Origin: a virus
Virus record (IMG/VR): IMGVR_UViG_3300046787_000286
Span: 16,060-80,059 of that record
Direction: 5' to 3' (one strand)
DNA length: 64,000 nt
The translations under genes were made by a program, and so were the position numbers. Under the pieces are notes generated by a model. It was not told the origin of the DNA and did no database searches. It saw nothing but the letters and a program-made list of their open reading frames with translations. This document shows, piece by piece, positions 47,970 to 61,143 of this stretch. Numbering within the stretch: position 1 is the stretch's first letter; each line of letters opens with the position of its first letter.

Positions 47970-47979
47970 ACTTTTCCTG

Positions 47980-48471: not shown

Positions 48472-48487
48472 TATTTCCTCTTTTATT

Positions 48488-48563: not shown

Positions 48564-48568
48564 ATTTT

Positions 48569-48642
48569 TGGTAGCCTGTAGAGGTTACGATCCTCTGTCG
48601 CTCGATTATCAGTCGAGTGCTCTACCATTGAGCTAACGGGCT
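48569..48642 (-). tRNA. tRNA-Ile (anticodon GAT), atypical T-loop ATCGTAA
   Basis: anticodon arm CTCGA-CTGATAA-TCGAG; acceptor has one C:A mismatch. Confidence 0.55.
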
Positions 48643-48826
48643 ATTTTACTTTTACCTTTTGCAGGATATCTTTTCGCATCAAAAAGATTCTTGGGGAATT
48701 CTCTTGATGCACTGCAATATACTCTACCCCATCTATCCACTGGGAGAGTTTTGTGTTATCACATACAACACGTTCGCGATTTAGTTTATTCTCAAATGTC
48801 ACGGGTTTCATCTCCTCCTCCCTTCA

Positions 48827-48901
48827 TGGCCGGTCCTGCAGGAATCGAACCCACATCTCCAAGTTCGAAGCATGGCATTCTATCCATTGAACTAAGGACC
48901 G
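48827..48901 (-). tRNA. tRNA-Arg (anticodon TCG)
   Basis: acceptor CGGTCCT/AGGACCG, anticodon loop CTTCGAA, T:T mismatch in the anticodon stem. Confidence 0.65.
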
Positions 48902-48908
48902 AAAATTA

Positions 48909-49085
48909 ATTACCTTCTAACTGCTCTATTTTATCGGCAGCTTCTTCAAGTAAGTCAGCAATGCGATCGGGCTTGCCCTCTTCTACACTCTTGCGTCCTT
49001 GAATCTGTCGCCTAATCTCTGCTCGCTTACGCAAGCGAAAGACTAGGCTTTGTTCACTAACAGGTAGATGACTTTCGTCAATCAT
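48909..49085 (-). CDS. small ORF (58 aa) coupled to the RNA ligase gene
   Basis: ATG overlaps the ligase stop; charged helical peptide. Confidence 0.25.
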
Positions 49086-49987
49086 ACTGTTTCCATATAG
49101 TTACGTACCCACTCTAAACGAGCTTGCTCGTCCATAGCAGTATACTCAACAATGTTAGCACGGATAGCATCCACTAGTGGATAGTATTCTTCGTCTAGTT
49201 GGTGCTTGATGTCTTTGTTCAAGTCTACTAACTTGTCTGTACGTGGATTGCGAGCAACCCACTTTGAAGTCAAGTAGTATGGTGACTTGATTTTAGCACT
49301 CACACCTTCGTTAGTGTAGAATACAAAACCTTCGTGCTTGCATTCCTTTGCTAAGTTCTTCAATGCAGCCATTGAAGTTGTTACACTTTCTGGCTTGTGA
49401 CAGTTAAACAACAATGCTAAGTCTTGCAACACACATGGATCGTGCCCCACTTTAGATCCAAACTCGTTTTCGCGATAGCCTAAAACATACATGCCTGCCT
49501 TCTCTGGAACGATATGAGGGTCACTTGGGTGAACACACTCGAACATCACAGTCATACCGTCTAGTTCATCGTCACAAAATGCTATACGCCAATCAGCTAA
49601 AGAACCATGAGTCAACATCATTTCTTTTGCCAGGTCAACGTATGGGCTGTCAGTGCTACCTGTAGTAGAAACTAGCACGTCGCCGTTATACCAAGTTATA
49701 GCAACCATAAAGCCGTTGACCTTACGATATGCTAGCACTTCTGTATCGTCGGCCAGCACTGGTGCTTCCTTTTCGATACCGTAGTTGTAGATCTTTGTGA
49801 ATGGATATGACACTAGGTTGAAATCCTTGTCCACAATAGACCCACGACATTCAGCAATGTATTCATTCCACAGGTTATCGTAGAACACTTTCTTCTTGTA
49901 CTTTAGCACGTAGATACCGTCGCCGGCTTCCTTCATGTTAACCAAGTTAGAAGTAGCTACATACTCCTTCAACTCATCTTTAAACAT
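49082..49987 (-). CDS. ATP-dependent RNA ligase-like protein
   Basis: nucleotidyltransferase motifs: KVNG (motif I-like), EGFVF (motif IV), AKIKSPYY (motif V); start placed at MFKDEL, which overlaps the kinase stop. Confidence 0.55.
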   Translation of the reverse strand: MFKDELKEYVATSNLVNMKEAGDGIYVLKYKKKVFYDNLWNEYIAECRGSIVDKDFNLVSYPFTKIYNYGIEKEAPVLADDTEVLAYRKVNGFMVAITWYNGDVLVSTTGSTDSPYVDLAKEMMLTHGSLADWRIAFCDDELDGMTVMFECVHPSDPHIVPEKAGMYVLGYRENEFGSKVGHDPCVLQDLALLFNCHKPESVTTSMAALKNLAKECKHEGFVFYTNEGVSAKIKSPYYLTSKWVARNPRTDKLVDLNKDIKHQLDEEYYPLVDAIRANIVEYTAMDEQARLEWVRNYMETV

Positions 49988-50441
49988 ACCAAATTTCCTT
50001 AAAGCCTTCTTCTTCAGTTGGCATTTCAAAATTGTTAATCATTGAACGCATAACGTTCTCCGGAATTGCCTTACCTGGTCGGCTAGCTAATCGACGTTCG
50101 TGTTCTTCCTTTTCGGGAGTACGAAACACAACAGCAATCTTTTCATAGTTAGACAAAATTGCCAACTTAGACTTGCGAGATTTTGCGCTAGTATTAGTTT
50201 GATCCCAAATACAATCTACTTGGTTCGCGTGGCAAACTCGTGCTTGATTGTCCATCAACTTCATTGCAATAGGCGCATATTCTTTGAACACTTCGTTGTA
50301 AGTTTTACCTACACGTTCTGCATGCTCGTCAATAAAACGATCGCTAGAGATAACCGGAACACCATCAGTCCAATTTTGTGCTTTGATCCAAGTGCTCTTA
50401 CCTGAACCTGGCACACCAATTAACATGTAAACTTTTGGCAT
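49980..50441 (-). CDS. P-loop polynucleotide kinase-like protein
   Basis: MLIGVPGSGKST Walker A; 153 aa. Confidence 0.55.
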   Translation of the reverse strand: MPKVYMLIGVPGSGKSTWIKAQNWTDGVPVISSDRFIDEHAERVGKTYNEVFKEYAPIAMKLMDNQARVCHANQVDCIWDQTNTSAKSRKSKLAILSNYEKIAVVFRTPEKEEHERRLASRPGKAIPENVMRSMINNFEMPTEEEGFKEIWYV

Positions 50442-50450
50442 AATTACTCC

Positions 50451-50993
50451 TTAGTGGTGAGCTCGAATCTCACCTTTTAATGCGTCTGCAATCATGTCGT
50501 CCATGTTGCTAACCACACGACCTGTTGCGTCAAAAGCTACATCACGGGCACGATACTTTTCCATGCCAGTCTTTGCACCATGTACATGACCGTAGAAGTG
50601 AACACTACCACGATGCATTTGGTCCCACTCCCAGATAGGGTAGTGCAACATGATAACAATTTGACCTTCATGGTTGTAACGCAAGTACTGATGCACTTCC
50701 TTAAACTCTGCACGGAATGCAGGGTCATTCAACAACTTGCGGTCATGATTGCCTTCAACCAAAATCTTACTACCATTCAACCGGCGCAAGATATCCACTG
50801 CGTCTTTTGCTGGCAAGAAAGCAAAGTCACCCAAGATGAATGTTTCATCTTCTGGCGCAACACTTGCGTTCCATTCTTTAATCATCTTTTCTCGCATGTC
50901 AGCCACATCAGTGAAGCCTGCCCGAGTTACTGGGCAAAACTTCATAATGTTTGCGTGACCAAAATGCAAGTCACTTGTAATCCATTTTGTCAT
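50451..50993 (-). CDS. calcineurin-like metallophosphoesterase
   Basis: SDLHFGH, GDFAF, GNHD motifs. Confidence 0.7.
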   Translation of the reverse strand: MTKWITSDLHFGHANIMKFCPVTRAGFTDVADMREKMIKEWNASVAPEDETFILGDFAFLPAKDAVDILRRLNGSKILVEGNHDRKLLNDPAFRAEFKEVHQYLRYNHEGQIVIMLHYPIWEWDQMHRGSVHFYGHVHGAKTGMEKYRARDVAFDATGRVVSNMDDMIADALKGEIRAHH

Positions 50994-50995
50994 TA

Positions 50996-51193
50996 TTATT
51001 CTCCGATGTATTCACGAACCCAATCAAAGTGAGCTTCGTCTGCTTTAACCCACTTGAACTGTTCTCGACGACGGTTGATTTTGTCAAAGTCAAAACAGAT
51101 AAAGATCCAGCCCTTGTCCTCTGAGAACATGACGGTATTTTGGACTTTGACAATCTGTACGATTTTGTCTTTCATCTTTGCTACTATCATCAT
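50996..51193 (-). CDS. hypothetical protein
   Basis: 65 aa ORF, promoter upstream. Confidence 0.35.
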   Translation of the reverse strand: MMIVAKMKDKIVQIVKVQNTVMFSEDKGWIFICFDFDKINRRREQFKWVKADEAHFDWVREYIGE

Positions 51194-51222
51194 GCTAGAT
51201 CCTTTTGCTTTGTTATGTGTAT

Positions 51223-51251
51223 ATTATAGCAAATCGGGCATTTTTGGTCAA
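51223..51251 (-). promoter_or_regulatory. sigma70-like promoter TTGACC-N17-TATAAT
   Basis: -10 at 51223-51228, -35 at 51246-51251; same core as 31457 and 34598. Confidence 0.6.
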
Positions 51252-51271
51252 CCAAAAAATGTAGTACTTAA

Positions 51272-51754
51272 TTACACATCGCCTTCGCGGGTTGGACTAT
51301 CTTCTAATCCCCACTCAACGCCATTGATTGTGTGGGGCTCTGCTTCGTCATAAGTCCAACCCAGCGCCTTCATCATCTTGTGCTTGACAAGTAAGTTAGG
51401 ACTACGAAATGCTTCAGTGTCATCAAAGCCTAACATTACCCCAATTTCTGCAACTGCACCCGAACGGCACACTCCTGCGTGGCAATGAACAATAACGTTC
51501 ATGCGTTGACCGTATGCTTTGAGCAACAAGTCAACCAATTGCTTGGCCTGTTCATCTGTGCATTTGCATTCGTCTGGAAAGTTATCTTTGTCCTCAGCAT
51601 CCAAGAATTCAAACTGATGAACTTCACGGAATTCATACTTGGGAACAGGAAACTCGTATGCTGGATCTACAATCTGAATCAGCATAGAGTTAATGCCGGG
51701 GGTAATATGAAACCCTTGACGAATGTCACTCATGCTTACATTTTGAATCCACAT
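51272..51754 (-). CDS. dual-specificity/protein-tyrosine phosphatase
   Basis: HCHAGVCRSG CX5R active-site signature. Confidence 0.7.
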   Translation of the reverse strand: MWIQNVSMSDIRQGFHITPGINSMLIQIVDPAYEFPVPKYEFREVHQFEFLDAEDKDNFPDECKCTDEQAKQLVDLLLKAYGQRMNVIVHCHAGVCRSGAVAEIGVMLGFDDTEAFRSPNLLVKHKMMKALGWTYDEAEPHTINGVEWGLEDSPTREGDV

Positions 51755-51755
51755 A

Positions 51756-51800
51756 AAAAATCTCCTTTAATGCGTTATTATAACACTAAAGGAGATTTTG
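51756..51800 (-). terminator. hairpin with flanking A/T runs (terminator at the end of the tRNA cluster)
   Basis: aaatctcctttaa...ttaaaggagattt. Confidence 0.4.
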
Positions 51801-51830
51801 GTCAAGTACTACCTTAGTACTACTTTTGTT

Positions 51831-51905
51831 TGGTACCTGGTGACGGTTTCGAACCGCCGACCCGCTGCGTGTAAAGCAGCCGCTCTCCCCCTGAGCTAAC
51901 CAGGC
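51831..51905 (-). tRNA. tRNA-Val (anticodon TAC)
   Basis: GCCTGGT TA GCTC AGGGGGA GAGC G GCTGC TTTACAC GCAGC GGGTC GGCGG TTCGAAA CCGTC ACCAGGT A CCA. Confidence 0.8.
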
Positions 51906-51913
51906 AAATTGTT

Positions 51914-51987
51914 TGGAGCGGGGTGCGGGAATCGAACCCGCAACTTCAACTTGGAAGGATGGTGTTTTACCACTAAACTAACCCCGC
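51914..51987 (-). tRNA. tRNA-Gly (anticodon TCC) probable
   Basis: acceptor GCGGGGT/ACCCCGC, loop CTTCCAA; two mismatches in the anticodon stem. Confidence 0.5.
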
Positions 51988-51995
51988 ATTAAATC

Positions 51996-52071
51996 TGGCT
52001 CCCCAGCGTGGGATCGAACCACGGACACCTTGATTAACAGTCAAGTGCAACTACCGCTGTGCTACTGGGGA
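51996..52071 (-). tRNA. tRNA-Asn (anticodon GTT)
   Basis: acceptor TCCCCAG/CTGGGGA, anticodon arm CTTGA-CTGTTAA-TCAAG. Confidence 0.75.
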
Positions 52072-52080
52072 ATATTTTTT

Positions 52081-52170
52081 TGGCGGTGCGAAAGAGACTC
52101 GAACTCTTAAAGCGGCTTTCACCACTCGACGGATTAGCAATCCGCTCCAATACCATTATGGGACCGCACC
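52081..52170 (-). tRNA. tRNA-Ser (anticodon GCT), class II
   Basis: anticodon loop TTGCTAA, long variable arm, T arm AAGAG-TTCGAGT-CTCTT. Confidence 0.75.
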
Positions 52171-52174
52171 AAAC

Positions 52175-52549
52175 TTAACAAGGTATCGAACTTAGTTCAT
52201 CTACCTGCTGCCTAGTAATATAATGAACTTTTTTACCGTCCATAATACTTATAGGCATATAAACTACTCTATCTATGTCTGACAGATAAACTGCCCAACA
52301 GTCGATTAAATCTCTATTAATAGCAACACCCTTCCCGTTTACCATAGAAGATGCTGCTATTTCATATCTATCACCTCTTCCCGGTGATCTATATTTTATT
52401 TGCAATCTAAACAATCTACCCTCTGAATCAACTGCTATACAGTCAACTGGATTATAGTCATCAAACGGTGTAAACGCGGTAAATCCTTTGGTGTATAAGT
52501 CTCCTATAACTTTAATAAGTCCTAGGTTGCCTTTTTCATTAACATTCAT
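52175..52549 (-). CDS. PD-(D/E)xK-type nuclease-like protein (Hjc/restriction-fold)
   Basis: D..(V)D.E...RLQIK motif; sits between tRNA genes and has its own promoter. Confidence 0.4.
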   Translation of the reverse strand: MNVNEKGNLGLIKVIGDLYTKGFTAFTPFDDYNPVDCIAVDSEGRLFRLQIKYRSPGRGDRYEIAASSMVNGKGVAINRDLIDCWAVYLSDIDRVVYMPISIMDGKKVHYITRQQVDELSSIPC

Positions 52550-52626
52550 GTGTATCTCCTGCTATGTTTATTTAGCAGATGATGCATCTGTTTGAATTAC
52601 CGTCCTGCCCGTCTTCCAATTATTCT

Positions 52627-52655
52627 ATTATATATCCAACTGCATGTGCAGTCAA
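52627..52655 (-). promoter_or_regulatory. sigma70-like promoter TTGACT-N17-TATAAT
   Basis: -10 at 52627-52632, -35 at 52650-52655. Confidence 0.55.
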
Positions 52656-52661
52656 CTATTT

Positions 52662-52744
52662 TGGTACCCCTGGTCAGATTCGAACTGACATATTATACTC
52701 CTCTGTTTGAGAGAGGCGACTTTACCAAGTTTGTCCACAGGGGC
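52662..52744 (-). tRNA. tRNA-Leu (anticodon CAA), class II
   Basis: anticodon arm CCTCT-CTCAAAC-AGAGG, long variable arm. Confidence 0.75.
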
Positions 52745-52749
52745 ATTTA

Positions 52750-52824
52750 TGGTGGATGTAGCTAGATTCGAACTAGCGGTAGGCACCGTATGAAGATGCT
52801 GCATTACCACTTTGCTATACATCC
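52750..52824 (-). tRNA. tRNA-Met/Ile2 (anticodon CAT)
   Basis: GGATGTA ... GCATC TTCATAC GGTGC ... GCTAG TTCGAAT CTAGC TACATCC A CCA. Confidence 0.75.
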
Positions 52825-52939
52825 ATATAGAAGCACTCTCAAATGCAGGCCTAGGAGGAGTCAAGCTCTGAAACCTTTGCGTATGCATCCACTAGGGTCT
52901 CTTCTCCCGCTTTGACTTATGCTAAGAATACTTCTATAT

Positions 52940-53014
52940 GGGGTGTTAGATGGGGAACGATCCCATACTATCGCTTTCACAGAGCAATGTGCAGACCACT
53001 ACACTACTAACACC
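52940..53014 (-). tRNA. tRNA-His (anticodon GTG) with encoded G-1
   Basis: G-1 pairs with C73; anticodon arm TTGCT-CTGTGAA-AGCGA; T-loop ATCGTTC; CCA. Confidence 0.75.
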
Positions 53015-53639
53015 ATAAATATTTTTGTGAAAACTTACTACAGTCAAACACCAGCCGGATTAGACTTTCAATTGAGTCTAAGTGATGATGGCGTGTGTTG
53101 CATTATAGTTTACGACACTTACGATTGTGAACTTGTCATGCGCTATTTCACTAACGTCAATCGAGCTCTACGCTTTATCAACAATCTCTAATACCATATA
53201 GAAACACATTCTTGACGTAAAGGGTCTTTTCATCGCGCTGGTTAGGCTGCTTCATAGTGAGACTCAACTATTAACCAAGTTGCTCGAAGTCTACTATCAA
53301 TGATGAATGCATTTCTATATGGCATTTGTAAAGCCGGCTCACTTTGAGCACCCTCGTCCTCCACGGACGGAGTTCTATTGTCATCATCAGTAGCATCCAA
53401 CAACGCAGGGCCCATTGTTATCTTACTCTACCAACTTATCGCGTCCCTTGCTCATACCCGTCGGTAATCACTCAGGCTTTCATTTAAACTACAGCTTAAC
53501 AAATACCATATGAAAACATTCTGTTGTGCTTGAAACAGTGACAACCCATCTTCCTGGCAACTTTTACCTGTATAGTCGACTTCAGGGTTACTCGATGAAC
53601 TCCAGTGTAGTTGTTCAGAATGTTTACATATAGCAAGCT

Positions 53640-53730
53640 CATTGTAGGCAGGGCTCGAACCTGCACACAGTCCTTACGGATAATGTCGCCCCTATAACGG
53701 GGCAATGTCTACCAATTCCATCACTACGAG
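53640..53730 (-). other. tRNA-like element (T-arm GCAGG-TTCGAGC-CCTGC plus GCCCC hairpin), unresolved
   Basis: T-arm is clear but acceptor pairing is not. Confidence 0.25.
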
Positions 53731-53963
53731 CTCCTGGAGTTAATTACTCTCCAGCATGGGTGTTACCTGCAGATAACACTTACCATATGTAAACACACTA
53801 ACGAACCTGGCTGTGGGCCGCGAACCCACTGTTTTCGCGTGGCACCAGCAAGTATTGCCACAATTACTGGTTAATGTGTTTGCATATGGTAGGGCTGCGG
53901 GGTAATGATCCCCGTTCTACTGGTTAAAAGCCAGTTGCTTCACCTTAAAGCTTCAACCCCATA

Positions 53964-54039
53964 TGGTCCCTCTGGTGGGAGTCGAACCCACACGTCACGG
54001 ATTAAGAGTCCGGCATGCTGCCTTAACATCTCAAAGGGA
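53964..54039 (-). tRNA. tRNA-Lys (anticodon CTT)
   Basis: CCCTTTG AG ATGT TAAGGCA GCAT G CCGGA CTCTTAA TCCGT GACGT GTGGG TTCGACT CCCAC CAGAGGG A CCA. Confidence 0.7.
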
Positions 54040-54148
54040 TGGATTGTAAAAATTGTCTTTTACGTGCCATCCCGGACCATACAGGGTACAGGGATGACAC
54101 TAACGTTTACCTGAACGTTTCATATCAAAGTTTCCTTATAAAAAATTT

Positions 54149-54224
54149 TGGTGCCGAAGAATGGATTTGAACCAGTGACACACGGATTTTCAATCCGCTG
54201 CTCTACCAACTGAGCTACATCGGC
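54149..54224 (-). tRNA. tRNA-Phe (anticodon GAA)
   Basis: GCCGATG TA GCTC AGTTGGTA GAGC A GCGGA TTGAAAA TCCGT...; close to the E. coli tRNA-Phe consensus. Confidence 0.8.
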
Positions 54225-54231
54225 AATTGTT

Positions 54232-54305
54232 TGGTGCTCTCACCAGGTATCGATCCTGGGTTTCTACATTACCAATGTAGTGTAATGCCTTTATACTATG
54301 AGAGC
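54232..54305 (-). tRNA. tRNA-Thr (anticodon GGT)
   Basis: acceptor GCTCTCA/TGAGAGC, anticodon arm CTACA-TTGGTAA-TGTAG, T-loop ATCGATA. Confidence 0.75.
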
Positions 54306-54560
54306 TTATTCTTCGTCGACTTCTTCTGAGTCGATTACTACAATATCTTCTGCATCGATGTCTTCTTCATCGATTTCGTCGAGTACAACTTCTGCTTCTT
54401 CAACTACAGGTGCAGCCACAGGTTTCTTAGGTCTACCCCATGCCGAGTAACTTGCACCTTCTACTCTACCGCTTACATTCGGTTCAATTTTTTGAATAGT
54501 GCCTCCACGAGCTAAGAACTCCTGGATAGCAAGGTCGGTTGAATTGTCTCTGTTACTCAT
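54306..54560 (-). CDS. small acidic protein (84 aa)
   Basis: start moved to MSNRDN to avoid overlapping the tRNA; Asp/Glu-rich C-terminus. Confidence 0.35.
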   Translation of the reverse strand: MSNRDNSTDLAIQEFLARGGTIQKIEPNVSGRVEGASYSAWGRPKKPVAAPVVEEAEVVLDEIDEEDIDAEDIVVIDSEEVDEE

Positions 54561-54578
54561 ATGTTCCTTTAAGTTAAT

Positions 54579-54653
54579 TGGTCCGGCGTGCAGGAATCGA
54601 ACCCACATTCATGAGGTAGAAGCTCATTGTACTATCCATTGTACTAACGCCAG
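54579..54653 (-). tRNA. tRNA-Arg (anticodon TCT)
   Basis: anticodon arm ATGAG-CTTCTAC-CTCAT, acceptor CTGGCGT/ACGCCGG. Confidence 0.7.
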
Positions 54654-54659
54654 ATATGG

Positions 54660-54770
54660 TAGGAGCGGTGGGAATTGAACCCACGTTAACTGCCTTATCT
54701 AGACAGTGCTTACGGCTGTATAAGGGCCGCCCTTAGGCCAACATTAGCAACACTCCCATTGAAAAACACA
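54660..54770 (-). other. tRNA-like element ~110 nt (T-arm GTGGG-TTCAATT-CCCAC, CCA), class II-like or disrupted
   Basis: possible acceptor GGGAGTG/CGCTCCT, but I found no canonical anticodon arm. Confidence 0.3.
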
Positions 54771-54845
54771 CTTAGACGTAGTAGTTCTTTAGTCCACTAA
54801 GATACACGACTACCACTCGTGTCATTAGTTAAATGTGTTTATCAA

Positions 54846-54920
54846 TGGAGTCGCATACGGGTTACGATCCCGTCTGGTCACCTTGAAAGGGTGATGACCT
54901 CACCAGAAGTCTAATGCGAC
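54846..54920 (-). tRNA. tRNA-Glu (anticodon TTC)
   Basis: GTCGCAT TA GACT TCTGGTGA GGTC A TCACC CTTTCAA GGTGA CCAG ACGGG ATCGTAA CCCGT ATGCGAC T CCA. Confidence 0.75.
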
Positions 54921-55148
54921 ATTGTTGAATTTGTAAGTAGTTGAGCCACTTTTATCTCAACTTTTTTCCTGATTATACAAGTCCGGACAGGGGGCGGCAT
55001 GACACTTGGGATACTAAGTCCAGCGTGGCAACCATACTGCACCGATCCTTTCGGATCAGCCGGGAGTCGAACCCGCTTGCCTTTTACTACACAACACCTT
55101 CGAAGAATATTGAATAGCGTGACATTCTCTTGCTGACACTTACAAAAT

Positions 55149-55222
55149 TGGTGGAGGATAACAGAATCGAACTGTTGCGAAAACCTTGCAAAGGTCCCAG
55201 GCTACCACTACATCAATCCCCC
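55149..55222 (-). tRNA. tRNA-Ala (anticodon TGC)
   Basis: acceptor GGGGGAT/ATCCTCC, loop TTTGCAA, T arm AACAG-TTCGATT-CTGTT. Confidence 0.7.
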
Positions 55223-55233
55223 GAATTTTTTAC

Positions 55234-55308
55234 TGGAGCCTTTGTAAAGAATCGAACTTCAGTTCCCGGCTTCGTAGACCAGTGTATTATCCATTATACG
55301 ACAAAGGC
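55234..55308 (-). tRNA. tRNA-Arg (anticodon ACG)
   Basis: acceptor GCCTTTG/CAAAGGC, anticodon arm CTGGT-CTACGAA-GCCGG. Confidence 0.7.
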
Positions 55309-55317
55309 AAATTGTTA

Positions 55318-55393
55318 GGCCCCGGAGGGAGGAATCGAACCTCCATTGGTTGTATACGGACCGTGTTACCATTACACTACAACCGGGATATAG
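55318..55393 (-). other. pseudo-tRNA/tRNA-like element (canonical D and T arms, no anticodon stem, ends CCT)
   Basis: GTGT-AATGGTA-ACAC and GGAGG-TTCGATT-CCTCC arms, but the middle does not fold. Confidence 0.3.
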
Positions 55394-55546
55394 GTTTTTG
55401 AGAGTTCCAACTATCTTTCTCAAGGACTCGCCGGGCTTGTCTCGTATGAGGGAGTTTAAACTACCTTGTGTTGCTACTGGTGTGTCAGTCTCAAGAATAG
55501 GGACCTAGCGCACAAGGGACTCAACCTCTACGTCTATCTCAAAAAT

Positions 55547-55620
55547 TGGTGCCCCATAACAGAATCGAACTGCTATCCCCGGATTACAAAACCGGTGTTC
55601 TACCATTTAACTAATGGGGC
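55547..55620 (-). tRNA. tRNA-Thr (anticodon TGT)
   Basis: acceptor GCCCCAT/ATGGGGC, loop TTTGTAA, T:T at 31:39. Confidence 0.65.
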
Positions 55621-55629
55621 AAATTGTTG

Positions 55630-55715
55630 GCTCCGTGTGTGAGATTCGAACTCACCTAGTCACTGATTAACAGTCAGGTCCTTGCACCTAGCTTGGATTT
55701 CACGGAATAAAATTG
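55630..55715 (-). other. tRNA-like element with GTT anticodon-type hairpin and aberrant 5' half
   Basis: CCTGA-CTGTTAA-TCAGT hairpin and GTGAG-TTCGAAT-CTCAC T-arm; acceptor has one mismatch; too long in the D region. Confidence 0.3.
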
Positions 55716-55728
55716 GCGTTCCTTGTAG

Positions 55729-55915
55729 ATTTTCACTACTGCTACACTAACGAGAGCGTTACAAGTCTTCCTTATCGTGCAGCTGGTTAGGCCTATTGTC
55801 AGGAGTTACGAAGCGTTTAGTATTCAGATCTGACCTGCGACCAAGCAGCGATGCCTGTCAACTACTACTTCACCTTGCAGAGCACTGAGAGCTCGCTGTG
55901 TCATCCTTTACGGAG
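55729..55915 (-). other. ~190-nt RNA with tRNA-like termini (acceptor GTTCCTC/AAGGAAC + G + CCA, T-loop-like TGAAAAT) enclosing a ~115-nt insert
   Basis: begins and ends at the conserved inter-tRNA spacer; the internal part has GAGC-TCTCAGT-GCTC hairpins. Confidence 0.3.
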
Positions 55916-55926
55916 GAACATAAAAT

Positions 55927-56001
55927 TGGCGGTCCCAGGGGGTAACGATCCCCCTCCTCAGCAGTGACAGTGCTGTGTGCGTCCATGAACACCTTGAGAC
56001 C
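55927..56001 (-). tRNA. tRNA-Asp (anticodon GTC)
   Basis: GGTCTCA AG GTGT TCATGGAC GCAC A CAGCA CTGTCAC TGCTG AGGA GGGGG ATCGTTA CCCCC TGGGACC G CCA. Confidence 0.75.
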
Positions 56002-56076
56002 TAAATTAAGAAAAACACATTGTAAGGGGTTCTCTGGTCACCTCTACACGCTTTTGTATACGCAATGTGTCTTATA

Positions 56077-56161
56077 TGGTGGAGGTGGCTGGACTTGAAC
56101 CAACAATGCACAAGGGCGGCGGATTTACAGTCCACTGGGGATACCATTTTCCTACACCTCC
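56077..56161 (-). tRNA. tRNA-Tyr (anticodon GTA), class II
   Basis: acceptor GGAGGTG/CACCTCC, anticodon arm GTGGA-CTGTAAA-TCCGC, long variable arm. Confidence 0.75.
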
Positions 56162-56265
56162 ATAATTCTTCTGCCGACCGGACCTGCCCCGATAATATAC
56201 TAGATACGTTAAATCTAGCCTTTCTAATGATACGTGCTTTCTTCACACGAATGACGACAAATTCT

Positions 56266-56349
56266 TGGTAGGACCGACCGGAATCGAACCGGTACGCATT
56301 ACGCGGCAGATTTTAAGTCTGCTGTGGCTACCTATTACACCACGGTCCC
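56266..56349 (-). tRNA. tRNA-Leu (anticodon TAA), class II
   Basis: anticodon arm GCAGA-CTTAAAA-TCTGC, long variable arm, T arm ACCGG-TTCGATT-CCGGT. Confidence 0.75.
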
Positions 56350-56360
56350 ATAAATTGTTC

Positions 56361-56568
56361 TGGCGGTGCGAAACCATCTGCACACTTACGCCTCTTAGCT
56401 TCTCACACCCGGGTGTTTACGCTTGGGTCATCGCCTGAAACTTGGTGGACAACAATGGGAATCTAACCCACTTCTCCCTCCTATGCTATTAGGAAGTTTC
56501 AGCACAGCATCAGTGCATCACGACAGTAAGTCCATAAACTTGGAAGAGCGTAGGGGAGTCGAACCCCT
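56361..56568 (-). other. unresolved structured region with tRNA 3'-half-like elements (..TCGCACC G CCA; AGGGG-TTCGACT-CCCCT ACGCTCT T CCA)
   Basis: two CCA-terminated T-arm/acceptor-like 3' halves with no matching 5' halves, downstream of the HNH gene. Confidence 0.25.
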
Positions 56569-57006
56569 CTACAAGTCTTCTAAATCTTTTATACTCAAAC
56601 TGGCTCGGTTAGTTTTTCCACTGCCCCAGCCAGTTTGCAATCCTTTTAGCATATTTGCTTTTGCCTCTGGGCTAGCGTTTCTGCTACCCCATGTGTCTGT
56701 TTGTGTATGACAGTTAGGACAAAGCCAAGTCACATTGTCAATGGTATTGTTTTTTGGATCGCCGTCGATATGTTCTAACTGGAGAACTAATTTCTTGCCA
56801 TTCCAATCACTAATACCACAACAACTGCACTTATACTCTGAAAATCTCTTTAGATAAGTTTTAGCATTGCCTTTATTGGCTTTGCCACTTTCCATTATAG
56901 TTTTTATCCTATAATCTTGAGTGCATTCTCTACTACAAAAATGCCCTGATTGTTGCGAATCAAAATACTTGTATTCTGTGTTGCAACTTTTACACAATCC
57001 AATCAT
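56569..57006 (-). CDS. HNH homing endonuclease
   Basis: HIDGDPKNNTIDNVTWLCPNCH HNH/zinc motif; N-terminal CxxC..CxxC. Confidence 0.7.
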   Translation of the reverse strand: MIGLCKSCNTEYKYFDSQQSGHFCSRECTQDYRIKTIMESGKANKGNAKTYLKRFSEYKCSCCGISDWNGKKLVLQLEHIDGDPKNNTIDNVTWLCPNCHTQTDTWGSRNASPEAKANMLKGLQTGWGSGKTNRASLSIKDLEDL

Positions 57007-57048
57007 TGGTTAGTTCTCCTTGCATTTATTTAGCAAACTAACCAATAA

Positions 57049-57123
57049 TGGTACTCCGAAGGAGAATCGAACTCCTCTTTCCGCCTTGAAAGGGCAGCGT
57101 CCTAACCGATAGACGACCGGAGC
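57049..57123 (-). tRNA. tRNA-Glu (anticodon TTC), second copy
   Basis: GCTCCGG TC GTCT ATCGGTTA GGAC G CTGCC CTTTCAA GGCGG AAAG AGGAG TTCGATT CTCCT TCGGAGT A CCA. Confidence 0.65.
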
Positions 57124-57632
57124 ATAATAAACACTATACATAAACACATTGGGATGATTGACAACAACCTATCTAGGCTAACCACGCTATCGTCTAGCGA
57201 CTGGCTGTCAAACACATTACAATCCTACCTGGTCCAGCGTGACTACTGATCAAAGCCTAAGCCGATTTCCATCTTTCATGTAACATAGCACGGCTGACAC
57301 GGCTGTCAACATCGCGATGCTATTGTTACCTACTGGGGCGGTAACCCAATGCGTTTGTGTATAGTGTCCGGAACTGAATCCGGATTCACTATACAAAAAT
57401 AAATTTTTAATGAACATTAGCTAGTTGCCTAACTAAGTGTCTAGTATAACATGATTGCCGATACTAGTCAATTTATTTGTTGCAAGTCCTTACACTTTGT
57501 AGGGTTACTTGGTATTCAGTTAGTTGCCTAACTTCCTAACTAGCCTCTAGTATAACACTCTTTTGATAAGTGGTCTACCACAAAATATTAACCCTACGCA
57601 ATGTAGGGTTATGTAATACTTTTGTTTGTAGA

Positions 57633-57708
57633 TGGTCTCCATAGAAGGATTTGAACCTTCACCACATGCTCCCAAAGCATGGACGCTACCAGGTTACGCC
57701 ATACGGAG
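57633..57708 (-). tRNA. tRNA-Pro (anticodon TGG)
   Basis: anticodon arm CATGC-TTTGGGA-GCATG, T arm GAAGG-TTCAAAT-CCTTC. Confidence 0.7.
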
Positions 57709-57713
57709 ATAAA

Positions 57714-57935
57714 TTATTTTACTTTTGGTTCTTTTGATTTGTCAAGCTCATGTGGCTCAGCAAATCTTGTAGGTGGATGGTCAAATGTTAGCCCCATCGA
57801 CTTAAACCAACCTAATGGTTTCCAGTACTTGTGTATAATGTTGTTGACTATAACTAACCCAACAATGATTACAACAAAACCCATCATTGTCAATACTGAC
57901 CCGGCTAAAAATACCGCTGCTTGATCCATGTCCAT
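57714..57935 (-). CDS. small single-pass membrane protein (73 aa)
   Basis: hydrophobic helix GSVLTMMGFVVIIVGLVIV; fits exactly between two tRNAs. Confidence 0.35.
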   Translation of the reverse strand: MDMDQAAVFLAGSVLTMMGFVVIIVGLVIVNNIIHKYWKPLGWFKSMGLTFDHPPTRFAEPHELDKSKEPKVK

Positions 57936-57951
57936 AATTTTTAAAGTCCTT

Positions 57952-58027
57952 TGGAGCGGGCAAAGAGACTCGAACTCTCGACATCTTCCTTGGCAAGGAA
58001 GTGCTCTACCAACTGAGCTATACCCGC
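57952..58027 (-). tRNA. tRNA-Gly (anticodon GCC)
   Basis: GCGGGTA TA GCTC AGTTGGTA GAGC A CTTCC TTGCCAA GGAAG ... Confidence 0.8.
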
Positions 58028-58077
58028 ATTATATTTTACTTATTATACAACACTCTTGCTGTGTTGTAAAGACATTT

Positions 58078-58154
58078 TGGTGCCGCCACGTGAACTCGAA
58101 TCACGGACCTTCCGCTTATCAAGCGGATGCTCTAACCAACTGAGCTATGGAGGC
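58078..58154 (-). tRNA. tRNA-Ile (anticodon GAT)
   Basis: GCCTCCA TA GCTC AGTTGGTTA GAGC A TCCGC TTGATAA GCGGA AGGTC CGTGA TTCGAGT TCACG TGGCGGC A CCA. Confidence 0.8.
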
Positions 58155-58159
58155 ATATT

Positions 58160-58248
58160 TGGAGGAAGGATGGTAGAATCGAACTCCAACCGCTTTCGCA
58201 GTCCATCTGTTTTCAAGACAGTGCAGGGCCCAGCCCTGATAACCTTCC
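58160..58248 (-). tRNA. tRNA-Ser (anticodon TGA)-like, class II, aberrant T-stem
   Basis: GGAAGGT... CTTGAAA anticodon loop, GCGAAAGC variable hairpin; T-stem TGGAG/CTACC pairs poorly and there is an extra nucleotide before the acceptor 3' strand. Confidence 0.4.
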
Positions 58249-58254
58249 ATGTTG

Positions 58255-58328
58255 TGGTCTGGGTAGGAAGAATCGAACTTCCGCATCAAGTATCCAAGAC
58301 TCGGAGACTACCACTATCTTATACCCAG
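58255..58328 (-). tRNA. tRNA with anticodon TGG (Pro-like), second copy
   Basis: acceptor CTGGGTA/TACCCAG, anticodon arm CGAGT-CTTGGAT-ACTTG, T arm GGAAG-TTCGATT-CTTCC. Confidence 0.5.
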
Positions 58329-58335
58329 ATTGTTT

Positions 58336-58410
58336 TGGTGGACCGTAGGAGAATCGAACTCCTGCTAAAGCGTTGCAAACGCCCTGTGCTACCATTATCA
58401 CTAACAGCCC
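58336..58410 (-). tRNA. tRNA-Ala (anticodon TGC), second copy
   Basis: GGGCTGT ... GGGCG TTTGCAA CGCTT ... AGGAG TTCGATT CTCCT ACGGTCC A CCA. Confidence 0.65.
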
Positions 58411-58419
58411 ATAAATTGT

Positions 58420-58493
58420 TGGCACGGGAACTAGGGATCGAACCTAGGACGACAGAGTCAAAGTCTGTTGTGTTACCTCTACACCATTCCCGA
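58420..58493 (-). tRNA. tRNA-Gln (anticodon TTG)
   Basis: D arm GTGT-AGAGGTA-ACAC, anticodon arm ACAGA-CTTTGAC-TCTGT, T arm CTAGG-TTCGATC-CCTAG; T1:T72 mismatch. Confidence 0.65.
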
Positions 58494-58666
58494 ACAAATT
58501 TTTAACGCACTGTTGCCAATGCGTGTATTAAAAAGCACAGATGTCTATGCTCTTTAATACGCTGGGTTTTTTCACACACCACAAAAGGTGCTTCTCATCC
58601 CCCAGGCCGCCCTCATTCTAGATTTTTATAGTGACTCTACGGCTCGCGTTGCCTAACCACTGTTGC

Positions 58667-58822
58667 TTAACCCAAGACCGGAGTCTTGCGTCTAGCCTTA
58701 AACTGTGCTGTTGCACGTTCTAGCTTCTGAGTAATGAGCGTTTGTCTTTGCTCAGAAGTTAAAGTATGCGTCCTCAACCAATCCTTCTTATCGTTGGGTA
58801 TGGATTTTACTATGTCTGTCAT
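58667..58822 (-). CDS. small ORF (51 aa) upstream of the tRNA array
   Basis: MTDIVKSIPNDKKDW...; weak AGGAA RBS. Confidence 0.25.
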   Translation of the reverse strand: MTDIVKSIPNDKKDWLRTHTLTSEQRQTLITQKLERATAQFKARRKTPVLG

Positions 58823-58854
58823 TAATTGTCAATTCCTACTTTAGTTTTACAAAA

Positions 58855-58900
58855 CAAAAAACCCTAGGAGTTTTAGTCCTAGGGTCCTTTAGTTTGTAAG
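58855..58900 (-). terminator. bidirectional hairpin terminator
   Basis: aaaaaa-ccctagga-gttttagt-cctaggg-tcctttagttt. Confidence 0.5.
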
Positions 58901-59067
58901 TTACTTGCTGTTAAGCGTAACCTGCTCCCTCGGACCCTAAGATAATCTCTGGTGTGCGATCATTACTATTCATTCCTGATGCAAACCATACGGCGGGGCA
59001 TGTGCCCAAGCCTTTAGCCTGTGTCTGGAGTGATAACGAATAATAATGTATGTTGTTCATGTTAGTA

Positions 59068-59096
59068 TTATATGTGTTTATTTATACCTTGTCAAC
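59068..59096 (-). promoter_or_regulatory. sigma70 consensus promoter TTGACA-N17-TATAAT
   Basis: -10 at 59068-59073, -35 at 59091-59096; faces the tRNA array. Confidence 0.55.
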
Positions 59097-59145
59097 CTAG
59101 TGTTGAGCTTTTATTTAGCCTTTTGGCAAAATTAGTTTGATTATG

Positions 59146-59328
59146 TTATGATTTTCGTCTAGAACAGTTGGGATCATTGCAAACACTAATTCTCTTGCGA
59201 TCACAGTGTGGACAATCTTTTGCGATCATCCATGTTTTTAAAAACATGGGTTTTTCATTCTTACCCGGTTTATCATTGCCTGAACATTGCGTGTAAATCA
59301 TAATAGCCTCCTTGGCTACTATATACAA
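59146..59328 (-). CDS. small Cys-rich (zinc-ribbon-like) protein
   Basis: strong AAGGAGG RBS; CxxC...CxxC. Confidence 0.5.
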   Translation of the reverse strand: MYIVAKEAIMIYTQCSGNDKPGKNEKPMFLKTWMIAKDCPHCDRKRISVCNDPNCSRRKS

Positions 59329-59361
59329 CGCCTTGCAAGTTACTTACGTTGACACAAAAGG

Positions 59362-59390
59362 TAAAAAAGAATGCCCGCCGAAACGGGCAT
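59362..59390 (-). terminator. intrinsic terminator of the tmRNA gene
   Basis: ATGCCCG-UUUCGG-CGGGCAU followed by UCUUUUUU on the minus strand. Confidence 0.65.
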
Positions 59391-59776
59391 GGTTGTTTAG
59401 GTTACAAGGTAAGTCCTACCCCGGGTGCATGGGTTATTAAGCCAATACAGCAGCACGACGAGCGATTTTTACACCGCGAGCGTTGATAGCTACTTCACCT
59501 TTTGTATTTGCGTTTGCATTTACGTTTTTTTGCGTCTACGGCCGAGTTCCCCCAACCCTACGGCTTCTGCTTTGCCGAGCTGTCCACTTGTTTACTTGTT
59601 GCCCTGTCGAAACCATGGCAGGCCCATTATAAAACACACTATTCCGTTATCCCACGTCTAGAACGATAACTGGGGCTCCGTAGAGCTAATGTGTTTTATG
59701 GTGGACCTGGCGGGAGTCGAACCCGCGTCCAGAACACTTTTCTCTTTGCTTCTTTCCTTACGGTTTTTACAGCAAT
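59365..59776 (-). ncRNA. ssrA: circularly permuted (two-piece) tmRNA gene: acceptor piece (~59699-59776) - intervening hairpin - coding piece (~59365-59625) with tag reading frame 59440..59517
   Basis: 3' acceptor/T-arm GGACGCGGGTTCGACTCCCGCCAGGTCCACCA is nearly identical to the E. coli tmRNA 3' end. Downstream of it on the RNA lie GGGCCUGCCAUGGUUUCGACAGGG (5' acceptor/P2-like), resume codon GCA, the frame ANANTKGEVAINARGVKIARRAAVLA, and UAAUAA. Confidence 0.8.
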
Positions 59777-59782
59777 ACAACA

Positions 59783-59811
59783 ATTATATATGACTTCTTT
59801 TAAAAAGTCAA
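59783..59811 (-). promoter_or_regulatory. sigma70 consensus promoter TTGACT-N17-TATAAT driving ssrA
   Basis: -10 at 59783-59788, -35 at 59806-59811, minus strand. Confidence 0.7.
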
Positions 59812-59814
59812 TAG

Positions 59815-59840
59815 AAAAGCCCACCGAAGTGGGCTTAATA
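59815..59840 (-). terminator. intrinsic terminator after the OMP gene, overlapping the ssrA -35 box
   Basis: AAGCCCAC-UUCG-GUGGGCUU followed by UUCUAUUGACUUUUU. Confidence 0.5.
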
Positions 59841-59856
59841 GTTAATCTAGTTTAGA

Positions 59857-60405
59857 TTAGAAGCCGAAACTTAGACCTAAACCAAATGCTTTCTCTTTGA
59901 TATCCTGAGCAGAACGGCTTGCATTTAAGTTAACTGCAACATTCTTTGCGACTGGCAAAGAGTATGTTGCAAATGAAACTGTTTGCTTAGTACGTGCGCC
60001 GTCTTCAGTTGAACCTACACGAGTCTTTGCACCCAACAACAAGAAGCCTGGACCGACTGGGCGACCATAAGTTGCACCAACTAAGCCATAGTTGAAACTT
60101 GCGCCACCGTTGAAGCCATTGTCATGACCAGCACCGATGAATGGAGTAATACCTGCGATGTTAACCTTGTTGTTAGCAACAGTAGTTTCCAAACTGTTCA
60201 CAACAACGCCGTCATTAAAACGTGCGGTTCGAGATTGCAAGTTGACTTGGTAGTCACCGAAGCCTTTTCCAGCACGAATATATTGGGCTGTGCTGTCAGT
60301 TGCACCTTTGCGACCTTGTACGTTTTCAACGTCAACTGATACAAAGTCTACTGCAAAAGCAGAGCTAGAAATGGCCAAAGCCAAGATTGCGAAGATTTTT
60401 TTCAT
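59857..60405 (-). CDS. outer-membrane beta-barrel protein (OmpX/OmpA-like small OMP)
   Basis: signal peptide MKKIFAILALAISSSAFA; alternating beta-strand pattern; C-terminal ...GLSFGF with a terminal Phe. Confidence 0.55.
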   Translation of the reverse strand: MKKIFAILALAISSSAFAVDFVSVDVENVQGRKGATDSTAQYIRAGKGFGDYQVNLQSRTARFNDGVVVNSLETTVANNKVNIAGITPFIGAGHDNGFNGGASFNYGLVGATYGRPVGPGFLLLGAKTRVGSTEDGARTKQTVSFATYSLPVAKNVAVNLNASRSAQDIKEKAFGLGLSFGF

Positions 60406-60487
60406 GTAATTTCCTTTTAGTTAAAATGACTTGCGTCACTTTACATTATATATTCGTAGCTACGTTAAGTCAAGTAAAAACGACAAA

Positions 60488-61042
60488 TTACTTGTTGGTG
60501 TCTTCTACAGGAACCCATCCTAATTTAAAAAAGTCTTCTCGGATCTCATCTGTGACACAGCTTTCACTAACATACTTGACAATGTCCATGCCTTGCTCTA
60601 GAGCCGATGCTATCTGCTGTTCAGTAAGCTCGCCTTTAATTCCTGAGCAGTACCAATCAATGTAGTCCCCAGACTCTACCATGTCAGCAACAATACCCCC
60701 GGCATAACGCCAGGAGCAAGAGTAAGTTTGCCCTTTCAGCAGCGGCCACACATCATTCTTTTGCCAGTCTTGATTGCACAAGGCAGCATAGATATTTTGT
60801 GCATAGCTTTCACGAGACTTAGCTTTGTCGCAGATCCACTCAGTGCTACGAAGATCATATTCCAAATTGTTCTGTTGCCACTCGGGCTCGGCTTCTTTTT
60901 TCTTAACCATATCACTCCACACACGCTCCCGCTCAATGGTTTGTCGAACTTCTTCATCAGTGTTGGGATCGCGCCCTTCTGCTATTACATCGTCGATGCG
61001 ACACTTGCTGTGAAAGGTACCTTTAATGGGACTTGAGTTCAT
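60488..61042 (-). CDS. hypothetical protein
   Basis: 184 aa ORF with a consensus promoter upstream. Confidence 0.45.
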   Translation of the reverse strand: MNSSPIKGTFHSKCRIDDVIAEGRDPNTDEEVRQTIERERVWSDMVKKKEAEPEWQQNNLEYDLRSTEWICDKAKSRESYAQNIYAALCNQDWQKNDVWPLLKGQTYSCSWRYAGGIVADMVESGDYIDWYCSGIKGELTEQQIASALEQGMDIVKYVSESCVTDEIREDFFKLGWVPVEDTNK

Positions 61043-61143
61043 ATAGCTAAGAAAGTTAAATGGTGCGACTGGAGGATTACGATACCTCGACCCAGCGATT
61101 ATGAGTCGCTTGCTCTTCCTCTGAGCTACAGTCGCTTATGTGT

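Follow-up and report, generated by a model that had tools for sequence, protein, structure and literature searches.

A permuted tmRNA gene at the edge of a phage tRNA array

The stretch of DNA analysed here (the window) comprises 64,000 nucleotides of an uncultivated virus, positions 16,060 to 80,059 of IMG/VR record IMGVR_UViG_3300046787_000286, and its subject is a circularly permuted transfer-messenger RNA (tmRNA; ssrA) gene on the minus strand, where positions 59811-59363 form a complete transcription unit from promoter through terminator. ARAGORN called a permuted tmRNA at 59346..59791 (-) with the tag ANANTKGEVAINARGVKIARRAAVLA followed by two stops, that is, the same tag that an earlier note, made from the letters of the sequence alone, had proposed. 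The Rfam model tmRNA_permuted (RF04321) reached 91.1 bits, where the gathering score is 47 (E=3.1e-16, based on the entire 64-kb window searched against 4227 Rfam families), with model positions 1-213 fully aligned. On the minus strand, the CCA end (59701-59699) lies upstream of the acceptor 5' strand GGGCCUG (59625-59619), which is the permuted arrangement. Because two independent detectors, ARAGORN and Rfam, agree and the structure covaries among relatives (below), the core reading is supported: judged from its sequence, the locus is a genuine, complete, circularly permuted two-piece tmRNA gene with its own promoter, tag frame and terminator.

Read along the minus strand, the unit starts with a promoter (59811-59783) whose -35 hexamer TTGACT (59806-59811) and -10 hexamer TATAAT (59783-59788), both recovered by a promoter scan, are separated by a 17-nt spacer. 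The earlier note had called this promoter perfect; the promoter itself holds up, with 11/12 consensus positions (TTGACT vs TTGACA), one base short of perfection, and the relatives carry a TTGAC-N17-TATAAT promoter at an equal distance upstream of the distal strand of helix P2. The same scan recovered the intrinsic terminator, and four further promoters with 11-12/12 consensus positions lie on the same strand within 2.9 kb. From the spacing (~7 nt past the -10 box), transcription is predicted to start near A59776, and this position would also define the 5' end of a predicted acceptor piece of ~78 nt (59699-59776) that, according to the Rfam alignment and covariation, is made up of the 5' strands of P2, the T arm, the acceptor 3' strand and ACCA. 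The arm between the promoter and the T arm is A-rich. On the evidence of covariation, the P2-distal 5' strand GCUGU (59769-59773) pairs with ACAGC (59583-59579) and the P2-proximal 5' strand UGUUCUG (59730-59736) pairs with CAGGGCA (59606-59600). The P2 internal loop holds a 14-nt insertion, AAAACCGUAAGGAA (59754-59767), with a possible CC-GUAA-GG mini-hairpin, which is specific to the window and absent in 28/28 aligned relatives. The tRNA-like 3' end with CCA that had been recognised from the letters alone is present: the T arm (59726-59710), with stem GCGGG/CCCGC and T loop UUCGACU, is placed by the Rfam alignment and by T-stem covariation, and is followed (59699-59709) by the acceptor 3' strand CAGGUCC (59709-59703) and the discriminator A with an encoded CCA (ACCA, 59702-59699). 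U59705 in this strand is U70, the partner of G3.

The intervening sequence (IVS) that follows, 73 nt in length (59626-59698), is predicted to be removed on maturation; it folds into a branched hairpin with paired ends (minimum free energy -23.5 kcal/mol), is 93% identical to the IVSs of the relatives L115 and L087, and contains no open reading frame (ORF), Shine-Dalgarno (SD) motif or start codon. Next comes a predicted coding piece of ~262 nt (59363-59625), which would run from an RNase P-type 5' end at G59625 to the terminator, its ends being set by analogy with known two-piece tmRNAs. It opens with the acceptor 5' strand GGGCCUG (59619-59625), which the earlier note had correctly located downstream of the CCA on the same transcript; this strand pairs in full with 59709-59703 (G3 is G59623) and is followed by CCAUGGUUUCGACAGGG, which agrees with the D-loop analogue (GGUUUCGAC). 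Further along lie the P3 hairpin CGGC-AAAGCAGAA-GCCG (59561-59577), the first stem of pseudoknot PK1, whose closing pair covaries, and an extra 7-bp hairpin, GGGUUGG-GGAA-CUCGGCC (59540-59558), of a '108-nt' subclass, which is likewise backed by covariation.

The tag frame called by ARAGORN (59440-59517) has 26 sense codons encoding ANANTKGEVAINARGVKIARRAAVLA, from the resume codon GCA (59517-59515), whose context (GUAAAU followed by GCA) is conserved among relatives, to GCU (59442-59440). The double stop UAA UAA (59434-59439) sits in the loop of a P5-like helix, GUAUUGG/CCCAUGC (59448-59427), and is followed by a conserved 3' stem, CGGGGUA-GGACU-UACCUUG (59405-59423), which shows compensatory variants and is probably part of a pseudoknot. 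The intrinsic terminator ATGCCCG-TTTCGG-CGGGCAT, then TCTTTTTT (59363-59390; stem 59390-59371, end of the T-run at 59363), closes the unit and aligns with the terminal hairpin of the Rfam model beta_tmRNA. The GCA resume codon, the 26-codon frame ending in ..ARRAAVLA, the double stop and the Rho-independent terminator all lie where they had been proposed, a set of elements that chance would not be expected to produce.

Covariation supports the two-piece structure

The structure was assessed comparatively in a set of 23 sequences (the window and 22 distinct relatives), in which the acceptor piece was joined to the coding piece up to the resume codon, the IVS was removed, and the sequences were aligned with MAFFT; pairing was then counted for a structure of 39 pairs that we specified. 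For this alignment the window was entered without its 14-nt insertion, and three loci whose 5' arm differs were left out. Standard pairs occupy 97.5% of the cells, and both sides have changed at 15/39 pairs, values that 0/500 shuffles attained. When the partners were slid by 1-3 columns as a control, pairing was 35-46% and both-sided changes occurred at 2 pairs at most. The covariation check on P2 that had been suggested for this locus was favourable, with both sides changed at 4/6 pairs of the distal helix and at 5/7 pairs of the proximal helix, the latter being paired in 99.4% of cells. The closing pair of P3 occurs as CG, GC or UA, and the extra 7-bp hairpin is paired in 98.8% of cells, with 2 pairs changed on both sides. 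When the pieces were cofolded with ViennaRNA, the comparative P2 helices did not appear and, therefore, P2 rests on covariation and not on energy.

Since the first 120 loci had been chosen by an exact 26-mer spanning the T arm and acceptor end, we took the variation in these two parts from loci anchored on the neighbouring protein instead. Five acceptor-stem variants occur in the protein-anchored loci (GGGCCUG/CAGGUCC, GGGGGUG/CACCUCC, GGGGAUG/CAUCUCC, GGGGGAG/CUCCUCC and GGGCCAG/CUGGUCC), and all five are fully paired, with G1, G2 and G3·U70 constant and positions 4-7 covarying across types of the tRNA-like domain (TLD). In the window, the alanine identity pair G3·U70 is G59623·U59705, within the 7-bp stem that joins the two pieces. 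The T stem shows five covarying variants in the protein-anchored loci as well, including GUGGG/CCCAC, GCGAG/CUCGC, GGGGG/CCCCC and CCGGG/CCCGG. In the 3' part of the molecule, the stop-codon hairpin changes from GCAG/CUGC to GCUG/CAGC at the equivalent place in relatives, and the stem CGGGGUA/UACCUUG is paired, with compensatory variants, across 86 unique relatives. Such compensatory changes, as read from the alignments, are the signature of purifying selection on the structure.

Assignment of the gene to the betaproteobacterial type

The earlier note had assigned the gene to the permuted type of alpha-proteobacteria and marine cyanobacteria, and this assignment did not stand. In a permissive Rfam scan of the locus, beta_tmRNA (RF01850) was the sole clade-specific model that survived clan competition; neither alpha_tmRNA nor cyano_tmRNA (RF01849, RF01851) did so. 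Beta_tmRNA aligns with the window from promoter to terminator hairpin at 62.4 bits, a score below the model's threshold that is weighed below, and close relatives pass that threshold: 6/15 viral loci tested (L012, L083, L128, L115, L106 and L009) score 102-134 bits, and the gene of Alcaligenes phage QDWS595 scores 93.8 bits. The window shares with beta_tmRNA the permuted order, a P2 composed of distal 5-bp and proximal 7-bp helices, a hairpin ahead of the UAAAUGCAAAC resume context, and a hairpin-terminator at the end. It differs from beta_tmRNA in the 14-nt P2 insertion, the extra 7-bp hairpin before the tag, the phage location, and a basic tag of 26 residues vs roughly ANDExFALAA. By this comparison, the window gene is a predicted member of the third known permuted lineage, the betaproteobacterial type, a two-piece lineage described by Sharkady & Williams 2004, as cited in PMC9004378.

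A long, basic tag belonging to a rare class

Among 93 unique relatives, tags of 10 residues are the commonest (44/93, ANDxxFALAA-type), and 35/93 have tags of 20-33 residues that form conserved peptide classes, e.g., ANADTFDFSAMSFTGNTVSGKSKVALAA, AKANTFEYFQVPVTLATANDAEFAIAA and a basic class. The window tag is 26 residues long, basic, beta-strand-prone and ends in VLA; it was found only in the window and in the contig L121. Its rare basic class consists of the window, L121, L069, L083, L158, L035, L080 and L089, and follows roughly the pattern A[NK]A[NS]T..G.V.V..GK..[KR]F..AR.., with alternating hydrophobic residues, a GK[GN] turn, an AR[RT] motif, and the endings VLA, FAV, LAV or AFA. Changes per codon position (1/2/3) number 14/9/31 in the FDFSAMSFTGNTV class (long-tag class ii), 30/28/45 in the basic class and 12/10/20 in the short tags, the length differences among class members keep the reading frame, and the tag frame is open across >90 unique relatives. 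Given the third-position bias and the frame-preserving length differences, these patterns suggest that the long-tag extensions behave as translated sequence under selection.

The long, basic, VLA-ending tag probably alters the fate of tagged proteins, and the VLA ending may change the degradation signal. A tag with another fate is known from Mesoplasma florum, in which Lon, and not ClpXP, recognises a longer SsrA tag with the ending NYAFA (PMC9382460). The M. florum system resembles the window in its long tag with a hydrophobic, non-LAA ending, and differs from it in having a one-piece tmRNA, in a bacterium without ClpXP, and an unrelated tag sequence (PMC9382460). The supplements of PMC11915505 contained no tag sequences for comparison. 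If it is true that long tags change protein fate, then phage tmRNAs would be active tools that reshape the host proteome as opposed to spare parts, and long tags could supply new orthogonal degrons.

A mosaic gene, and small ORFs in the intervening sequences of relatives

The contig L121 encodes a neighbouring protein 93% identical to that of the window, and it matches the window at 99.6% identity starting with the P2 3' strand and extending over the tag and a downstream small ORF. Its tRNA-like domain is different, having a GUGGG T stem and a fully paired GGGGGUG/CACCUCC acceptor stem, its IVS is 23 nt long, and it has neither the gene for an outer-membrane-protein (OMP)-like product that precedes the tmRNA in the window nor a separate promoter. 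L128 shows a window-like order (a conserved 184-aa gene, an OMP-like gene and a tmRNA with a GCGGG-type domain) but a short tag, ANDEQFALAA. The L121-type domain occurs in 36 viral contigs, nearly always with short tags. We read these comparisons as follows: the window gene is a mosaic of two family modules, by its sequence a cassette replacement in an L121-like backbone with the breakpoint in the conserved P2 region, and the replaced cassette, so delimited, runs from the OMP-like gene and the promoter through the acceptor piece and the IVS into the 5' end of the coding piece. An assembly chimera with a single switch is unlikely to account for this mosaic because both outer flanks are L121-like.

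The IVSs of the relatives, taken as the stretch between CCA and GGGCCTG, offer a side observation. Those of at least 115 nt carry an SD-like motif and start codon (TAAGGAAGTTT[AG]ATG) directly after the CCA, and in 16/21 of them, all in relatives and not in the window, a forward ORF spans at least 85% of the IVS. The corresponding number averaged 0.53 over 200 shuffles (maximum 4), with 0 for the reverse strand. Products range from 35 to 83 aa, many of them hydrophobic or Cys-rich, and one matches phrog_13558 (E=1e-12); IVSs of 82-93 nt encode hydrophobic peptides of ~23 aa, likewise with an SD-like motif and start codon right behind the CCA and a frame that fills the insert. The relatives with IVS ORFs are L001, L003, L004, L010, L027, L030, L036, L041, L053, L054, L069, L071, L075, L085, L089, L093 and L095. 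No nested tRNAs were found when these were sought in the long IVSs, small ORFs in IVSs were not reported in the literature that we searched, and the 2025 tmRNA database paper mentions only tRNA-Ala and a repeat element inside IVSs. These small ORFs suggest that the two-piece layout can deliver mini-mRNAs via tRNA-type processing.

Distribution and known systems

A permuted tmRNA inside a phage is no rarity, either in the literature or in viral metagenomes. Buchholz et al. 2022 (PMC9004378) found tmRNA genes in 402/18,146 phage genomes and predicted 53/133 unique forms to be two-piece, and in their Table S1 the permuted forms include those of jumbo phage XacN1 (385 kb) and of Caulobacter phage Ccr29. 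Phage ssrA genes were also listed by Hudson et al. 2014, tmRNAs and SmpB were reported in huge phages by Al-Shayeb et al. 2020, and the 2025 database holds 79 phage tmRNAs. Among the IMG/VR contigs that we fetched there are >150 permuted tmRNA copies, and the acceptor-end 26-mer matches at least 120 viral contigs, in which every tmRNA called is permuted. Phage permuted tmRNAs, including those of jumbo phages, are already documented, and the window is a well-built new example that is notable mainly for its long basic tag.

In a scan of 185,579 species genomes, the same 26-mer had 21 exact matches, all of them in tRNA-Ala genes or standard tmRNAs of unrelated phyla; that is, no permuted tmRNA with the acceptor end of the window was found by this exact scan, which gave no host. 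When the locus and the surrounding 24 kb were compared at the nucleotide level with 50,697 deposited phages, for both near and distant similarity, the matches were only of tRNA or TLD size, and no close cultured relative emerged. Two cultured phages carry unannotated permuted tmRNAs: Alcaligenes phage vB_Af_QDWS595 (OK149171.2, about 54972-55348, complement; L223 2445-2821) and Xanthomonas phage X1 (OQ427096.1, about 120978-121428; L222 2462-2912). Both genes are permuted, adjoin tRNA genes and have an acceptor-piece arm and tRNA-like domain homologous to those of the window (83-93% identity over 40-65 nt). They differ from the window in their short tags (ANDNVYAAAA in QDWS595 and VAANDADYSVARYA in X1) and in the rest of their genomes, which is unrelated, and QDWS595 is a 70-kb schitovirus and not a jumbo phage. 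In the related phage BUDD, the corresponding stretch is annotated as a hypothetical protein. These loci show that two-piece tmRNAs of the beta type occur commonly in phages that are uncultivated and mostly large, and that the annotations of at least two cultured phages lack them.

Other phages with a permuted ssrA by ARAGORN are OM43 phage Melnitz, the pelagimyophages, XacN1, Ccr29 and Ruegeria phage V10 (PMC9004378, Table S1). The published two-piece genes stand behind an early sigma-70-type promoter, and some are in tRNA-rich jumbo phages (PMC9004378). The Melnitz gene is alpha-type and linked to a glutamine riboswitch, whereas the window gene is beta-type; Rfam scans for a glutamine riboswitch at the window found none. 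The experimental paradigm for the mechanism proposed below is the tmRNA of Caulobacter crescentus, in which, according to Keiler, Shapiro & Williams 2000 as summarised in PMC9004378, a precursor is cut by tRNA-processing enzymes into two base-paired pieces. As described there, the Caulobacter tmRNA differs from that of the window in being alpha-type, with another P2/pseudoknot layout, chromosomal, and provided with a short acidic tag.

The phage and its tRNA array

The window is phage-like, encoding a structural/scaffold protein, a 5'-3' exonuclease, a thymidylate synthase and radical-SAM paralogues. Two of its conserved proteins share ~50% amino-acid identity with proteins of the jumbo phages PA5oct and Phosso and 36% with Atu_ph07, and relatives of the flanking gene are found on viral contigs of up to 520 kb. 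A tblastn search with the conserved flanking protein against cultured phages gave no match.

The large tRNA array that the earlier note had seen next to the tmRNA is present: the gene stands at one end of a minus-strand array at 43010-61135 with ~37 tRNA genes according to ARAGORN. The adjoining ArfB-like rescue factor of the same note is, by contrast, a GGQ protein of 124 aa (43094-43468, minus strand) that is flanked by tRNA-Leu and tRNA-Val, at the opposite end of the array and 16 kb from the tmRNA. It matches the Pfam family RF-1 (PF00472) with 52.2 bits against a cutoff of 35, with the GGQ motif present, and among NCBIfam models RF1 (63 bits, positions 210-338 of 347), PrfH (49.6) and RF2; the part of RF1 to which it corresponds is the C-terminal third, its resemblance to PrfH is weaker, and it has no codon-recognition domains. 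No ArfB model was returned by NCBIfam for this protein, and tblastn with Escherichia coli ArfB found nothing at the locus, a weak negative.

Proposed mechanism and alternative explanations

The mechanism that we propose is modelled on the Caulobacter two-piece tmRNA and on the general tmRNA pathway. Host RNA polymerase would recognise the sigma-70-type promoter, start near A59776 and stop at the terminator, giving a precursor of ~410 nt. With that start, just 3 nt would precede the distal P2 strand, so that the acceptor piece probably keeps the 5' end of the primary transcript. RNase P would then cut 5' of G59625, tRNA 3'-end processing would expose the CCA at 59699, and the structured 73-nt IVS would be discarded, leaving pieces of ~78 nt and ~262 nt held together by the 7-bp acceptor stem and by the 7-bp and 5-bp P2 helices. 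Host alanyl-tRNA synthetase (AlaRS) would charge the CCA end by way of the identity element G3·U70, and host SmpB and EF-Tu would deliver the charged RNA to ribosomes stalled on broken mRNAs, where translation would resume at GCA, alanine and the 26-residue tag would be added, and termination at UAA UAA would free the ribosome. The likely benefit to the phage is that ribosomes are kept available while host mRNA is degraded, in a genome region that also provides ~37 tRNAs and a putative tRNA-repair module.

On the whole, the sequence leads us to put at roughly 90% the probability that this is a working ssrA gene, circularly permuted and of the two-piece type of betaproteobacteria, carried among the tRNA genes of an uncultivated jumbo phage that infects a Gram-negative host. 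Several points weigh against this view. The window scores 62.4 bits with beta_tmRNA, below the gathering score of 84, and the 14-nt P2 insertion is unique to the window copy; we attribute the shortfall in score to this insertion together with the extra 7-bp hairpin. The candidate second stem of PK1, of 2-3 bp, shows one-sided changes only and is paired in 87% of cells. No SmpB was found by tblastn in the 64-kb window, which is a weak negative given that the query was an E. coli SmpB and that the genome is probably larger, and compatibility with host SmpB and AlaRS is assumed. The functional steps of expression, processing and charging are all ones that we infer. Finally, the tag of the window ends in VLA vs the LAA, MAA or VAA of most relatives and, consequently, the proteolysis step of the general pathway may not hold.

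The alternative that fares best is that the locus is a working tmRNA with a repurposed tag, which would direct proteins not to ClpXP but to another protease (Lon-like or phage-encoded), to an adaptor, or to marking or inactivation, so that the phage would control the nascent chains of its host. We consider this possible, with the odds against it. In its favour are the length of the tag (26 residues vs the commonest 10), the existence of a small class with a common peptide pattern and the non-LAA endings VLA, FAV, LAV and AFA, the third-position bias, which indicates selection on the peptide, and the Lon-directed NYAFA tag of M. florum as a precedent (PMC9382460). Yet the last residues remain small and hydrophobic and close with Ala, so that they may still act as a ClpXP/ClpAP degron, the codon bias of the basic class is modest (30/28/45; about p=0.08 in our chi-square test), and the window yielded no protease or adaptor as a partner. 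It is intriguing to hypothesize further that the gene represents a phage-restricted, module-exchanging beta-type lineage in which the long VLA tag would divert the proteins of stalled ribosomes away from ClpXP to a fate chosen by the phage (another protease or adaptor, or inactivation) and in which the IVS would serve the lineage as a slot for small protein genes; we regard this combined model as doubtful.

A decoy role, with a tRNA-like domain that would inhibit host trans-translation by titrating the SmpB of the host or by competing with its tmRNA, is very unlikely. Such a role has been proposed for the TLD-only RNA of mycobacteriophage DS6A, which carries hardly anything beyond a TLD, and tmRNA is inhibited by a similar molecule (PMC4131195); moreover, the phage RNA must draw on the SmpB pool of the host if, as the window indicates, the phage has no SmpB of its own. 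However, the mRNA-like domain of the window gene is complete and conserved, with its resume context, biased open tag frame, double stop in a hairpin loop and 3' structure, none of which a decoy would need, and the tag frame has been kept open in the >90 unique relatives. That the gene is instead a non-functional remnant of host ssrA, left by imprecise prophage excision or by integration-site duplication, or an assembly chimera, is scarcely credible; tmRNA genes are indeed frequent integration sites with fragments occurring in prophages (PMC9004378) and the gene is a mosaic of two modules, but both of its halves are complete with their own promoter and terminator, its acceptor end occurs in at least 120 viral contigs vs no permuted tmRNA with this end in the 185,579 species genomes, its compensatory changes point to purifying selection, no integrase was seen among the ORFs examined, and both outer flanks match L121.

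Other features of the window

A few further observations concern the surroundings of the tmRNA gene. The OMP-like protein (59857-60405, minus strand, 182 aa) has a signal peptide, a C-terminal ...GLGLSFGF and an outer-membrane beta-barrel-like character, and no family match. Its gene, absent in the near-identical L121, has its own 11/12 promoter (60473-60445) and terminator (59836-59817), and homologues lie within ~2 kb of the tmRNA, on either side, in 8 fetched loci. On the other side, directly downstream of the tmRNA terminator, an ORF for a Cys-rich protein of 51 aa (CPHC...CNDPNC; 59146-59300, minus strand) has a strong SD, AAGGAGG; it is 96% conserved in L121 (6970-7122) and has no family match.

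The tRNA array contains duplicates for Asn, Glu, Pro, Ile, Ala and Met. Two ARAGORN calls (46165-46253 and 53640-53730) have two-base 'anticodons', and Rfam tRNA matches beyond those of ARAGORN lie at 54660-54757 (98 nt, possibly with an insert) and 55320-55386. A GOLLD RNA (RF02032, 197.6 bits, full length) is located within the array at 45196-45661 (minus strand), with a nested tRNA-Asn at 45526-45599, and another occurs in the related jumbo-phage contig L123 (11355-11819, 204 bits). The putative RNA-repair set, also within the array (47980-51754, minus strand), consists of an RNaseH-like protein (47980-48471), a T4 Rnl1-type RNA ligase (49082-50029), an AAA_33 kinase (49980-50441) and a dual-specificity-phosphatase-like protein (51272-51754), all on the minus strand. 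Two small proteins related to host RNA polymerase (RNAP) are encoded among the tRNA genes, at 54306-54608 and 43825-44052 (both minus strand), the former with a SutA RNAP-binding domain (E=4.5e-8), the latter with one that is Rpb6/omega-like (E=2.5e-8). A radical-SAM ORF (46333-47541, plus strand) is found inside the array on the opposite strand, in a stretch of low GC content (36.8%).

Elsewhere in the window, four or five radical-SAM-like paralogues followed by a Nol-type carbamoyltransferase occupy 5819-18826 on the plus strand, and a group of host-like auxiliary genes at 40171-42654 (minus strand) encodes a TctC-family solute receptor (a weak match), a CMD/AhpD-like protein (41600-42115) and an AhpC/TSA peroxiredoxin (42115-42654).

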